Origin: Nitrospirales bacterium | GTDB lineage: Bacteria > Nitrospirota > Nitrospiria > Nitrospirales > UBA8639 | DNA: 64,000 bases | Assembly (NCBI GenBank): GCA_963555755.3 | Contig: OY820905.2 | Coordinates: 2,560,001-2,624,000, forward strand | Direction: 5' to 3' | In this document: positions 22,648-27,101 of the stretch, piece after piece | Layout: each line of letters begins with the position of its first letter | How positions within the stretch are numbered: position 1 is the first letter of the stretch | Position numbers and translations under genes: made by a program | The notes under the pieces: model-generated | The model's database searches: none | What the model was told of the DNA's origin: nothing | What the model saw: only the letters and a program-made list of their open reading frames with translations

Positions 22648-23204
22648 CAGCCTACTGTCTCCTTATTGGGTACCGAACCCTTCCCTTTCAGCGGAAGTGT
22701 CTCCCATACTCCACCCATTAAAATTAGGAGTTGTTTGCGACACCGCGAATCCCACGTATAAATCGTATTAATTGAGCGTTCGCCCAGAATCTTTTGGATT
22801 TCTGGAAAGGTATGGCCTTCCAGTTTCAGACGAAATAGGTTTTGGCATCGCTCACCTAATTGCTGTATTGCAGCAATCAGGTGTGTCACCCGCTCATTCT
22901 GCTCGGCTTGCATAGCTGGGTCATCTCCTGGATCGACAAGCATGTGATCATCCACTGACTCCTGGTTGTATTCCCCATGCCGAAGGGTTTTGCGGTGACG
23001 GTCCAGCATTTTATACCGAAGGATTTGAAAGGACAGGGGAACGAGTTCAGTCAATTCCGTCACGTGTGGATATTTTTCATGCAAGACCATCAGGACATCC
23101 TGGGTTAAATCTTCGGCCCCTTCCCTTACACCACGAGATGTCGCAAAAGCCAAAATCCTTTCACGGAGCCGGCACAGGATTTCCTCACGAGTCAGTGCTC
23201 CCAT
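22647..23204 (-). CDS. ECF sigma-70 factor
   Basis: AEDLTQDV region 2 and region 4 HTH; 185 aa. Confidence 0.85.
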   Translation of the reverse strand: MGALTREEILCRLRERILAFATSRGVREGAEDLTQDVLMVLHEKYPHVTELTELVPLSFQILRYKMLDRHRKTLRHGEYNQESVDDHMLVDPGDDPAMQAEQNERVTHLIAAIQQLGERCQNLFRLKLEGHTFPEIQKILGERSINTIYTWDSRCRKQLLILMGGVWETLPLKGKGSVPNKETVG

Positions 23205-23439
23205 TCTGTTACCGTCACTCCTCCCAACCGTGTTCCGGCAAATCAGTATTTCCCGTATGACTCAATGATACCACTTCTGCATCCGGTATATGGTTTCTTT
23301 TCATTGATGGAGGCGGTTTAGGAAAATTAAAGTGGGTAGAGTAGAGCACTGGTGCATACATGGAGCTGCTCTCGAACGCTTCGACGCACGCGTCTACCAC
23401 GGACCATAGCAGTCAGCACTTCCCAGCGCCCCCTCATCA

Positions 23440-25433
23440 GTAGGGTCGAGGACTGGCGCGCCAACGGTAGGGTTCGGTGGCTCCTCCACCCCTTTCGGAA
23501 TGGGCCTCAGTCCGACTCCCCTGGTCACGGTTCCAGTCCCCGCCACCTCAAACCCGGCGTGCTGATTTCCAGCACCGGGCTTTCCTGGATGCTTCACCTC
23601 AAGGGTTATGTGACCTATCAGCCTGGAAGGACTTTCATGCCGACCCGTTGTACCGCACTCGGTAATCTCCATATAAGCCAAGTACCGTGTAGAGCCAAAC
23701 CTTACTCCACCTCTTCCAGCCAAAACCTCGACGGTGGCGCACTCGCATCATGTGCCGCCGGACCTTCCGCTCCACCCAATCCTTCACGTAGGATAAACAC
23801 CGACTCGCATGCCCAATCCGGAAGTAGTTCACCCAGCCCCGTACGATCGGATTGATCATGGCGATCATCCGTCCCACCGGCTGGGATTGCCCGCGTCGGA
23901 ACACTTCCTTGAGCTTCCGCAGCAACGCGGTGCGCCGCTTCACCTTCGGTATGTACTGCGGGCGCCACACTCCACGCCGCGACCGCACACGCCGAAAGTC
24001 AAAGCCCAGAAAGCCGAAGCTGCCTCCCTGACTCAGGTCCACGATTCGGCTCTTCTCCTCATTCACCTGAAGGTCTAATTGGGCCAACGCCTCTCGCAGC
24101 TTCCGCTCCGCAACCTGCGCCAGTTGTGCGTGGCGGCGATAGCCATCCACTAACACGACGAGGTCATCCGCAAACCGGACATACTCGAGATACGTATACT
24201 GGCCCTGCCGGGTTGTCTCCTTCAGCTGCTCCAGCCTCTCATCCACTTCCGTGAGATAGAGGTTGGCCAGCAGCGGGGAAATCACACCCCCTTGAGGCAC
24301 CCCACGCGGGCCGGACGCCTTGACGATGAGTTTCACCAGCCGCAGGATCGCGGGATCCTGGATGCGTCGGGCCACCTTCGCCAGCAGCCGGTCATGCCGC
24401 ACCGTGTCGAAGAAGGCCGCCAGATCCACATCAATCACTCGCGTCTTGTTCTGCACCATCGCCTGAGCCACCCGGCCAATCGCCTGGTGGGCTGTCCGTT
24501 TCGGTCGATACCCATACGACCCATCACGAAAATCCGCCTCAAAGATCGGTTCCAGCAGGAGCTTGAGCGCTCCCTGTACCACGCGGTCCCGAATCGCGGG
24601 TATCCCTAAGACGCGGACTCGTCCACCGCCTTTCGAAATCTCCACGTGCCGGTTCCGCATCGGTCGGTAGGTCTGCGTGACCAGTTCGTCCCGTAGTCGT
24701 GCAAGAAAGGGCTCCACCCCCGTGGCCTCGATGCCAGCAAACGTCACCCCATCAATGCCGGGGGCTCCGTTGTTTTTCTTGGCCATCGAATAGGCCGCGC
24801 GTAGCGTCGCCTCTTTGCACACGTGGACGTACAGGCCCCACACCCGCCATCGCTTCTCAGCCTTCGCCTTGACGTAGAGCCGCTGTCGCAGGTCTTGCAG
24901 TGTAATGGACGCCGTTGTCATCTCGTCCCTGCCTCCCATGTTGATCACAGCCTACAGCCAGTAGGGCTCCTTTGCTCCACAGGCATGACCCTGCTTCCTC
25001 GCTCCTACGAGCCCCTCCGCCACCCTCTCGTCTTCGGCTCACTTCCCAGAGAGCTGGTTATAGAGCCGATCTTCCTCCAGGGATTTCTCCCTGGGACGAG
25101 GAGGGCTTCTCCAGTTGCGTCGTCTGTCCTTGCTCCCGTGCTGTCGCTCTCACCCCGCCGGAGTGGCCAGGCGTCTCAGCCTTGGTTCGCCTGTCCATGC
25201 CGTCTTCGTCCTACGGACAGGGACTCGACCTCCGAGGTTTCATACTTTCGAGGCTACCTCTGCGTTCACTTGCGTTACGGCCCGGGAACTCGCTCACCAT
25301 CCTCTACGATGGCTTTGTCGATGGGCTTCAGCGTCTCGGTTTCTCTCCACGCTGCCATCCAAGCTACAGGGCTCAGGCTCTTACCCTGGTGGGCTTGCTT
25401 CCCACTGAACAGTCTCGCCTTACCTGGACACAC
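23440..25433 (-). mobile_element. Inner group II intron encoding an RT/maturase
   Basis: 5' GTGTG, 3' CCCTAC, DV at about 23550-23583, EBS1 GTCCGT (25213-25218). Confidence 0.92.
23635..24921 (-). CDS. ltrA: Group II intron reverse transcriptase/maturase without endonuclease domain
   Basis: GAPGIDG, LGIPAIRDRVVQ, PQGGVISP, FADD, RGWVNYF. Confidence 0.95.
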   Translation of the reverse strand: MTTASITLQDLRQRLYVKAKAEKRWRVWGLYVHVCKEATLRAAYSMAKKNNGAPGIDGVTFAGIEATGVEPFLARLRDELVTQTYRPMRNRHVEISKGGGRVRVLGIPAIRDRVVQGALKLLLEPIFEADFRDGSYGYRPKRTAHQAIGRVAQAMVQNKTRVIDVDLAAFFDTVRHDRLLAKVARRIQDPAILRLVKLIVKASGPRGVPQGGVISPLLANLYLTEVDERLEQLKETTRQGQYTYLEYVRFADDLVVLVDGYRRHAQLAQVAERKLREALAQLDLQVNEEKSRIVDLSQGGSFGFLGFDFRRVRSRRGVWRPQYIPKVKRRTALLRKLKEVFRRGQSQPVGRMIAMINPIVRGWVNYFRIGHASRCLSYVKDWVERKVRRHMMRVRHRRGFGWKRWSKVWLYTVLGLYGDYRVRYNGSA

Positions 25434-26159
25434 ATCCGTGCGTATGGTTTTCCCATACACGGCTTTCCGATGTTCTTCTTCCAGCGGCATGCGTCTGTCA
25501 TCAAGCAATAGCCAAATTCAGACTTGGCCTTCTGAGATAGTTTCCTCTGTAGTGTCCTGATCGTGCTCGGGGTGGTTAGCGCAATGGCAATCCCCTGATC
25601 CTCCACTCGTCGGAAACGTGAACAAAGTAGGGTCCCTTCCCTCGGGCCGGGTTGTGTTGTCCCAGGCTCTCCAACGGTACTATGAACCCCTCCGACTCCC
25701 ACGACGGCCCGCAGCGATTTCGGTATCCCTTATACGCCTCAGTTGCTGGTTCTGCGCCAGCACCGTCGCGGGTCTCCCGTCCTGCACGGTGTCTCTTCCG
25801 CCACATGCCATCCCTGCTACCCCGGAAGATCCTGAGGGTGGGTGTTCGTTCTGCTCCCTCAAACGGCGGCCTTCCCCTTCTGACCACAGGGTCGGCATCT
25901 CCAATTCGTTTACGAGGCTACATCTAGGTTCGCTTGCGCTACGGCCTGCGGCTTTGCCCATGGGAAACTTCAACCCCTGATTACTCAGACGCTGCTTCCC
26001 GGTACTAGAAAGGTGTACGAACAACTCCTTTCGCGGGACTTCAACCCGCTAGACACACCGCCGATGACGGCATGCGGTCAGACTCGATTAAAACTGGAAT
26101 TCTTAGTAAAACTGTCCTGCGTTTTTATTTCTTCGAAGTTGCCCCCTAGATTTTTCATT

Positions 26160-27101
26160 TTAAGCCTGGCCGGTCCTGCTAGATTGTCGTGCCAGATTGA
26201 CTAACACCCCTTCCCGTAGTCCGTATTCGCTGACGAGGCATTGATCCTGCCGGAGTTCTTCCATGATGCAACGGAGAATGAGTGTGCCGGCGGCAATGAC
26301 TTCTTCGCGGCCAGGCTCTAACCCGGGGATGCTAGTGCGTTCTGATTTTTTTCGAGGGAAAATGGTTTGCTCGATGATTTTCACCGTTTCGAGTGTCAGG
26401 GTGTAATTATGTATGCGCTCGGGAACATATGTTGTGAGCCCTTGGGCGATGGCCGCCAGGGACGTGATGGTCCCGGCGGTTCCGACGAAGGTCAGGCCAG
26501 ATATGTCGCCTAGGGTGGTTAGAGCTCGTTGGGTTGAGGAATGGATGAGTTGTTCGGCTTCTTGAATTTCAGATGCTGATGGCGGATCACTTTTTAATAC
26601 ACGCTCTGATAATCGGACCACGCCAATGTCAATCGAGATGGCTTTCGGAGGTTGCCCCTCGCGACTGACGATAAATTCCGTGCTGCCGCCACCAATATCC
26701 AGGCCCAACATGTCATGAATTTGGTCCAGGAACCCTGAGCGAAGACCTAGAAGCGTTCGTCGCGCCTCCTCTTCTCCATCAATGACTTCAACTTCCACCC
26801 CGGCTTCCTGTTTGACTCGTTGGAGGAATTCCTCACGATTGCAAGCTTCTCGCACGGCGCTCGTGGCCACGGCAATGGAGGCTTGGACACCATGTTGATC
26901 AATCACTCCTTGCCACTCTCTTATCGCTTCGATGACCCGAGTCATGGCTTCGGGTTTGAGTTGCTTGGTTTGATCGACGCCTTCACCCAATCGTAAAATC
27001 TTCCTGCCGGAGTACACTGTTTTTACTGGGCCGTGACCGTCCACTTCCCCGATGAGCAGACGACACGTGAGGGTGCCGATGTCGATGCATGCTACTCGCA
27101 T
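26160..27101 (-). CDS. ppx: Ppx/GppA family phosphatase
   Basis: IDIGT, ATSAVREA, DIGGGSTE, GLREG. Confidence 0.9.
   Translation of the reverse strand: MRVACIDIGTLTCRLLIGEVDGHGPVKTVYSGRKILRLGEGVDQTKQLKPEAMTRVIEAIREWQGVIDQHGVQASIAVATSAVREACNREEFLQRVKQEAGVEVEVIDGEEEARRTLLGLRSGFLDQIHDMLGLDIGGGSTEFIVSREGQPPKAISIDIGVVRLSERVLKSDPPSASEIQEAEQLIHSSTQRALTTLGDISGLTFVGTAGTITSLAAIAQGLTTYVPERIHNYTLTLETVKIIEQTIFPRKKSERTSIPGLEPGREEVIAAGTLILRCIMEELRQDQCLVSEYGLREGVLVNLARQSSRTGQA

Follow-up and report, generated by a model that had tools for sequence, protein, structure and literature searches.

A group II intron nested in domain V of an ORF-deleted group II intron in a Nitrospirales genome

Among described nested introns (twintrons), the closest to the subject of this study is the psbF twintron of the Euglena gracilis chloroplast, where a group II intron lies within domain V (DV) of another (Copertino and Hallick 1991, via the review PMC8393795; this and the other sources given by PMC number were available in part, and what we say of them refers to that part). 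Here, we describe a prokaryotic locus of the same layout, on the minus strand of a window of 64,000 nucleotides (nt) from a Nitrospirales bacterium (assembly GCA_963555755.3, contig OY820905.2, positions 2,560,001 to 2,624,000, that is, G000:C1:2560001-2624000). A group II intron that codes for a reverse transcriptase (RT) is nested there in DV of a group II intron that has lost its open reading frame (ORF). Unprefixed positions refer to this window, and other copies are given in C1 coordinates of the same genome. Whereas the Euglena twintron is a single organellar locus, with no DV-targeting mobile lineage described in the accessible text, the inner intron found here is multicopy, encodes an RT, is programmed by its exon-binding site 1 (EBS1), and is seen in many bacterial phyla.

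Other known systems share part of this arrangement. The RYADD-homing introns B.th.I3, M.a.I5, UA.I3, and P.l.I2 (PMC2504315) likewise lack an endonuclease, home to a conserved motif of other group II introns, and form twintrons; their target, however, is a protein-coding RT motif in domain IV, whereas here it is the catalytic hairpin, which is present also in ORF-less introns. Thermosynechococcus elongatus TeI3/TeI4 (PMC2882425) resembles our case in that one family has inserted repeatedly and independently into scattered copies of another and in that it has ORF-less introns that derive from one deletion and are mobilized in trans, but its inner intron has no ORF, is a close relative of its host, and is located in domain IV, while the inner intron described here bears an RT, is unrelated to its host, and sits in DV. 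Prokaryotic nested group II introns are also known from Methanosarcina acetivorans (PMC4424553) and from Trichodesmium, where sequential splicing of the Tr.e.I7/I8 twintron, with its inner member in domain I of the host, was shown (PMC4649490); the accessible text of neither describes a DV target. Along the same lines, the available parts of PMC5572947 and PMC3534033 hold no precedent for DV insertion, and no bacterial lineage of DV-homing introns turned up in the literature searched, which covered neither theses and supplements nor subscription papers and the Zimmerly intron database, any of which could contain such a record.

Nested anatomy and order of splicing

The outer intron is composed of 642 nt (positions 26075 to 25434) and 104 nt (23439 to 23336), 746 nt in total, separated by the 1,994 nt of the inner intron (25433 to 23440), so that one intron lies inside the other. 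A preliminary description of this DNA, made from the letters alone, had proposed an RT intron within DV of an ORF-less intron with these very boundaries, and both the nesting and the limits of the two introns were confirmed. At a second copy of the inner intron, located in the fhs gene (see below), a contig of run X2 lacks precisely these 1,994 nt, which fixes the inner boundaries (GTGTG...CCCTAC), while the outer ones (26075 and 23336) are supported by EBS1 pairing with intron-binding site 1 (IBS1) and by flanks that rebuild an empty repeat. Both twintron junctions were bridged by independent Illumina contigs (X8, records 26 and 29; X10, records 10 and 16), which rules out a long-read assembly artefact.

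Covariance models yielded two Rfam domain I matches, D1D4-4 at 25407 to 25270 (112 bits) and D1D4-6 at 26042 to 25810 (64 bits), but a single match to DV and domain VI (DVI). The two complete sets expected in the preliminary description were thus found for domain I only, the sole DV-DVI match being that of the inner intron at 23467 to 23584 (Intron_gpII, 36.7 bits, E value of 6.5e-5, below the gathering score of 40; three other inner copies score 43.4), which is what an interrupted outer DV-DVI would give.

The inner intron has the attributes of a mobile group II intron, namely, domain I, DV-DVI, an intact RT/maturase in domain IV, and EBS1-IBS1 and EBS3-IBS3 pairings. Its ends (GTGTG...AC) fit the GUGYG/AY rule, and the presence of EBS3 makes it IIB type. 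The RT/maturase (23635 to 24948, 437 amino acids from a GTG codon, with the ATG at 24921 as a likely alternative start) matches TIGR04416 (356.8 bits; cutoff, 300) and contains RVT_1 and GIIM domains but no endonuclease domain; the closest relative among the matches listed is 93% identical. EBS1 (GUCCGU, 25218 to 25213) pairs at six of six positions, with one G-U, to the flanking ACGGAU (25439 to 25434), exactly as the preliminary description had it. The predicted EBS3 is the A at 25150, which pairs with the T at 23439, the first base of the 3' flank and the closing base of the outer DV; the EBS3 column was selected as the one that best covaries with the first 3'-flank base, the pair being Watson-Crick in 36 of 43 homologs (28 G:C, 7 A:T, and 1 T:A). 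The 6-bp sequence-specific EBS1 does not fit a group IIC terminator-targeting intron, which would have a short IBS1 behind a hairpin and no fixed target sequence.

The insertion point separates the two lowermost base pairs of the outer DV stem, one base from its bottom. Most of DV stays whole upstream, 32 nt (25465 to 25434) including the AGC triad (25464 to 25462) and the bulge, and the last six of these bases (ACGGAT) are the inner IBS1. What is displaced by 2 kb is the base that closes DV, the linker between DV and DVI, DVI with the branch point, and the 3' splice site. Once rejoined, the outer DV is predicted to form a hairpin (-13.3 kcal/mol; z score, -3.8), and DV plus DVI fold with a bulged A at -7 (z score, -2.7), so the refolding on which the preliminary description had staked its proposal is borne out by prediction; for the whole rejoined 746-nt intron, the z score was only -1.4.

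Given that the inner IBS1 is the very strand that pairs with the AGC triad of the host, the host DV fold and the inner EBS1 pairing are mutually exclusive and, with the host branch site 2 kb away until the inner intron is removed, the inner intron likely splices before the outer one, an order that the preliminary description had put as obligatory. A scheme in which targeting is as described but splicing is unordered, with the outer intron either engaging its own DVI in spite of the 2-kb insert (a "zombie" twintron) or making use of the DVI and 3' splice site of the inner intron, appears improbable to us. The short DV-DVI linker positions the branch site, and the inner intron is intact, recently mobile, and competes through its EBS1 for the 3' strand of DV. 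On the other hand, the 32 DV nucleotides with the triad and bulge are contiguous and fold upstream of the insertion at -13 kcal/mol, and plant mitochondrial twintrons whose outer intron splices without splicing of the inner one have been reported (PMC7049729); the cox1 insert of that report, however, is in domain IV, which is structurally dispensable.

Site choice within the genome and across bacteria

The genome contains 13 full-length copies of the inner intron and three larger fragments. Fourteen 5' junctions could be read, and 11 of them lie at the same DV position, 9 in intact DVs and 2 in DVs previously split by an insertion sequence (IS); two more are head to tail within one such site, and the last is in fhs. 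Three families of host introns were hit at DV, and among the outer introns, all seven ORF-less copies and two of the three full-length ones are invaded. None of the 14 junctions is at an RT active-site motif, unlike those of the RYADD-homing lineage. Two EBS1 alleles exist, and they follow the DV variant. The GACCGU allele is always at ACGGTT (three of three copies), while of the 11 copies with GUCCGU, 7 are at ACGGA(T/C), 2 are in tandem, and 2 are at ACGGTT with a mismatch. The second allele was also present in an X10 contig (the place corresponding to 25217). Among intact DVs with a perfect match, just one is empty, and it is in the disfavored orientation (see below).

The fhs copy (C1:1562261-1560268) is in sense within the single formate-tetrahydrofolate ligase gene, behind a 7-bp match to EBS1, and its removal restores the reading frame. 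Run X2 has this site empty and X1 apparently occupied, indicating that the inner intron moved recently. At C1:2165998-2160017, three nonidentical inner copies form a head-to-tail array within one outer DV. Similar arrays arose experimentally by rehoming of EcKTE56.groEL at an occupied site (PMC12584367), where an EBS3 U wobble-pairs with the first G; since the EBS3 predicted here is an A, rehoming would have to tolerate a mismatch. An occupied site can likely be hit again, as its 5' flank is unchanged.

Relatives of the inner intron were sought in species genomes, and of about 6,200 stretches estimated to match, the 80 highest-ranking loci were taken; 23 loci were dropped (11 without a 5' match near the ORF, 8 without a recognizable start, and 4 with too short a flank), leaving 57. 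A fixed DV-hairpin rule was passed by 22 of them, from 17 genomes and eight named phyla, versus 167 of 17,100 random positions (1.0%), and 6 further loci look like DV variants by eye. EBS1-IBS1 pairing averaged 5.64 of 6 with the own flank versus 3.29 with shuffled flanks (n = 58). Within the DV sites alone, including those identified by eye, the values were 5.66 and 4.59 (n = 29), and none of 5,000 shuffles reached 5.66, a count that is not a probability because the rows are related. For instance, TTCCGT goes with ACGGAA and ATCCGT with ACGGAT. A host domain I was detected by Rfam upstream on the same strand in 12 of 20 DV loci scanned, mostly near enough to imply ORF-less hosts.

Taken together, we consider it probable that the inner intron, whose EBS1 is complementary to the 3' strand of DV, reached the base of DV by ordinary retrohoming, landing in the sequence that other introns conserve best. 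The claim of the preliminary description that this intron is programmed to target DV has thereby been extended to many copies in one genome and to several phyla. The other genomic copies and the many relatives at the same DV spot in other phyla make it likely that the lineage is a parasite of introns.

Several results weigh against this reading. No inner EBS2-IBS2 pairing is evident by eye. In the genome, two GUCCGU copies are mismatched at ACGGTT, and several matching or near-matching DVs are empty, both in other families and in a sister family of the outer intron (three, with ACGGTT). Across species, no host domain I reaches the gathering threshold in 8 of the 20 DV loci, an upstream RT is found in only 4 of 22 DV loci (0 of 23 other loci), and 29 to 35 of the 57 relatives are outside DV, interspersed in the tree, with EBS1 loops mostly matching other targets. 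Finally, contigs from two RNA libraries (X8 and X10), which may contain DNA and show presence rather than absence, carried only unspliced junctions at the twintron; they held no joint across the inner intron at the twintron or fhs locus, no spliced junction belonging to the ORF-less outer intron, and no fully spliced product.

Given these interspersed relatives, DV targeting is common in the clade but not fixed. A quick IQ-TREE tree of 65 rows placed DV and non-DV rows in alternation within a clade of 58 (98% support in the SH-like approximate likelihood ratio test), which does not support DV targeting as the mark of one exclusive clade and fits either a preference for DV that is old and was followed by several retargeting events or the gain of DV targeting more than once. 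At least two non-DV relatives (L020 and L028) are in domain I of another intron, as their Rfam matches begin at the 3' junction; L020, L022, and L028 all appear retargeted to domain I of another intron family. Two more distant relatives (L053 and L076), with a GCGTG 5' end, stand just behind the reverse complement of the repeat targeted by the outer intron.

We also compared the DV of each inner intron with its own EBS1. None of 25 DV-targeting rows pairs at all six positions (range, 2 to 5; 3 in the twintron inner intron). This divergence is real but clade-wide, since it is common to all 16 non-DV rows as well, and an adaptation for self-avoidance was therefore rejected as not shown; one relative (L047) is even inserted in a DV of the clade's own type. 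In a Rokubacteria metagenome-assembled genome (MAG), the EBS1 of one relative (L023) matches, and the intron occupies, a DV essentially identical to the own DV of its sister intron in the same MAG (L027); L023 has possibly been retargeted onto a relative.

The outer intron, its repeat target, and its movement

The preliminary description had not noticed that the outer intron is an ORF-deletion derivative, that its seven copies are all invaded, or that it homes to a dispersed repeat. An uninterrupted RT-encoding relative is found at C1:230290-228319, with D1D4-6 and Intron_gpII matches (42.8 bits) and an open 450-amino-acid RT frame (RVT_1 and GIIM); its intact equivalent of the outer DV does score as Intron_gpII. 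In blastn comparisons, positions 1 to 573 of the outer intron match 1 to 573 of this relative (93% identity over 573 nt) and positions 595 to 746 match 1821 to 1972. What is left of the RT gene is an N-terminal remnant at 25585 to 25517, devoid of its start codon and with ca. 1.2 kb deleted behind it.

The 5' part comprises domains I to IV and most of DV and begins at the same point in 12 genomic copies or fragments; the 3' part holds the last DV base, the linker, DVI with a predicted branch A at 23342, and the end CTCTAC, in keeping with the 3' ends of 18 copies or relatives. With domain I, a DV carrying the AGC triad (its G opposite an A, not a U, in this allele), a bulged A in DVI, and an AY end, the outer intron departs from the canonical form in its 5' end, which is GCAUG (26075 to 26071) instead of GUGYG. 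Other noncanonical 5' ends in the outer family are GUUCG in the sister family (C1:3675077, 176541, 1426065, 5129, and 1254830) and GUAUG in another Nitrospirales MAG (L001). Despite these different ends, an EBS1 aimed at the TGACC/CC repeat is common to the family. The loop GGUCAGA (25885 to 25879), at the EBS1 hairpin position of the D1D4-6 alignment, is the 7-bp complement of the IBS1 TCTGACC (26082 to 26076); it is retained, always identical, in 15 of 17 family copies, and TGACC directly precedes all 17 of the starts listed. This match and the rebuilt repeat support the 5' boundary. Alternative starts at the nearby GTGTG (26058) and at the shared TGACC (26080) were rejected, since TGACC pairs with the outer EBS1 and, together with the CC of the 3' flank, restores the empty repeat.

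The dispersed repeat has 102 empty copies matching GAYYTGACCCC. The 7-mer TGACCCC is not overrepresented in itself (809 occurrences against a permutation median of 579 and maximum of 1,210), so that only the longer context marks the repeat, and a literature search for the TGACCCC repeat motif gave nothing relevant. Copies are often inverted or in tandem, with transposase, toxin-antitoxin, and contact-dependent inhibition (CDI) genes among the neighbors sampled. Outside this genome, matches to the outer intron occur in only 2 of 40 related genomes, both fragmented assemblies, and the L001 MAG carries an ORF-less outer intron of 85% identity that is also part of a twintron.

Inner and outer introns likely move separately, given that their differences are incongruent. 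In two pairs of outer copies without a single difference in 746 nt, the inner introns differ at 15 to 16 sites, whereas outer introns that differ at 43 sites carry inner introns that differ at 4. Recombination or gene conversion could yield the same incongruence, and one tandem copy looks mosaic, both of which speak against separate movement. By GC skew, all 13 inner sites and 15 of 17 outer-family members have leading-strand sense versus 36 of 102 empty repeats (Fisher's exact test, P = 7.5e-5), although the replication origin was placed from the GC skew alone, a further point on the contrary side, and the bias of the inner sites is not independent of that of their hosts. The bias of both introns is as expected of endonuclease-less homing on the lagging-strand template, known from RmInt1 (PMC8914252).

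These results bear on a simpler scenario, in which a single historical DV insertion was later spread by duplication or conversion of the entire twintron at the DNA level, there being no targeting program and the outer intron being dead. It would explain why all seven ORF-less outer copies are invaded and none is free, why one pair with identical outer introns has inner introns differing at just 1 site, and why there is a similar ORF-less twintron in the L001 MAG. It does not account for the incongruent differences, for the same DV position in three host families of this genome and in 17 other genomes, for an EBS1 that tracks the DV variant, or for outer introns that end exactly at their boundaries in an otherwise intact repeat, strand biased and without target duplication. 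As far as targeting goes, wholesale copying is largely refuted, and we regard it as very improbable.

A mutualistic relationship, with the inner RT serving the ORF-less outer intron in cis and the host losing its own gene as the invader supplies one, would agree with the seven of seven invaded ORF-less hosts versus two of three full-length ones, and also with the hosts detected in other genomes, 8 to 9 of 12 of which are short and apparently ORF-less. Nevertheless, the RTs of the inner intron and the outer family are only 37 to 38% identical, and their RNAs match different Rfam domain I models. The introns between which trans-mobilization of ORF-less members was demonstrated are closely related (PMC2882425), and the present genome does contain close relatives of the outer intron with an open RT frame. 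We therefore think mutualism quite improbable.

Under the preferred reading, that is, retrohoming of the inner intron to DV, an endonuclease-less ribonucleoprotein would reverse-splice at the replication fork into the single-stranded DNA of the lagging-strand template. In the RNA, the inner EBS1 would strip the 3' strand off the host DV, and the inner intron would splice first and restore DV-DVI. The freed 746-nt outer intron might then splice and move with an RT provided in trans by full-length relatives, landing free of the inner intron in a dispersed TGACC/CC repeat. Every new outer copy would in turn be reinvaded, and renewed hits at an occupied DV could give the head-to-tail array seen elsewhere in the genome. 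Because retrohoming requires an intact DV-DVI, an outer copy that has moved is expected to lack the inner intron on arrival and to be reinvaded afterwards. The same course was argued for TeI3/TeI4 (PMC2882425).

As for its surroundings, the twintron is flanked by a ppx/gppA gene (ending at 26160; Pfam) and by a probable extracytoplasmic function (ECF) sigma factor gene (starting at 23204), an assignment that comes from a weak Pfam match below the cutoff. Judging from the translations, the minus-strand operon from 23204 to 18205 encodes, besides this probable ECF sigma factor, an anti-sigma-like protein with a membrane anchor and a VIT/vWA-like protein. Lying in sense just 5' of this operon, the twintron may be cotranscribed with it; a promoter and terminator scan gave no signal above chance.

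Domain V as a target and comparison with known systems

DV is the sole element conserved by all group II introns (PMC4028801), and a DV-homing intron would therefore have a safe, self-renewing target in any intron-rich genome. Such an intron would also gate the activity of the introns that it invades. Nested loci of this kind are undercounted, as one intron pipeline leaves out twintrons and another misses the outer intron (PMC4028801, PMC8919778). The present genome offers a test set, as it has hosts with and without the invader, two alleles each of EBS1 and of the DV that matches it, a tandem array, and a copy inserted in its single fhs gene, so that ordered splicing at a ribozyme active site and conflict between introns become directly testable.

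A bolder view, which we put forward tentatively and rather doubt, is that DV is contested in a layered system of parasites. The repeat would host the outer intron, and the DV of the latter would be under attack from two independent sides, an intron lineage that crosses phyla and an unannotated IS. The two DV and two EBS1 alleles would reflect ongoing escape and counter-escape, and the invader would act as a natural regulator of the mobility of other introns.

The IS in question is ca. 1.86 kb long (C1:1251116-1252976), with terminal inverted repeats and a short target duplication, and has further copies near C1:3058590-3060439, 775532-777381, and 1024325-1026155. Each of the four genomic copies interrupts the terminal loop of a group II DV, and both orientations occur. 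The encoded protein of 596 amino acids has no Pfam match; the atlas calls it a "putative transposase" with a weak IS1/IS1595-like neighbor. About 4 of 14 loci of metagenome relatives with pattern-matching ends are, by eye, also in DV. At least 35 RT-like matches were counted in the genome, and at C1:1-12000 and C1:796870-802711, three intron families and IS256-like elements are stacked inside each other in arrays.

Published work already included twintrons, a single DV insertion (that of Euglena psbF), and lineages that home to introns, with the RT motif or domain IV as their target. This locus adds paired EBS1 and DV alleles within one genome, a free host on the disfavored strand, and an empty fhs allele, as well as an outer intron with a noncanonical 5' end and a repeat target of its own and a second mobile element in the same hairpin.

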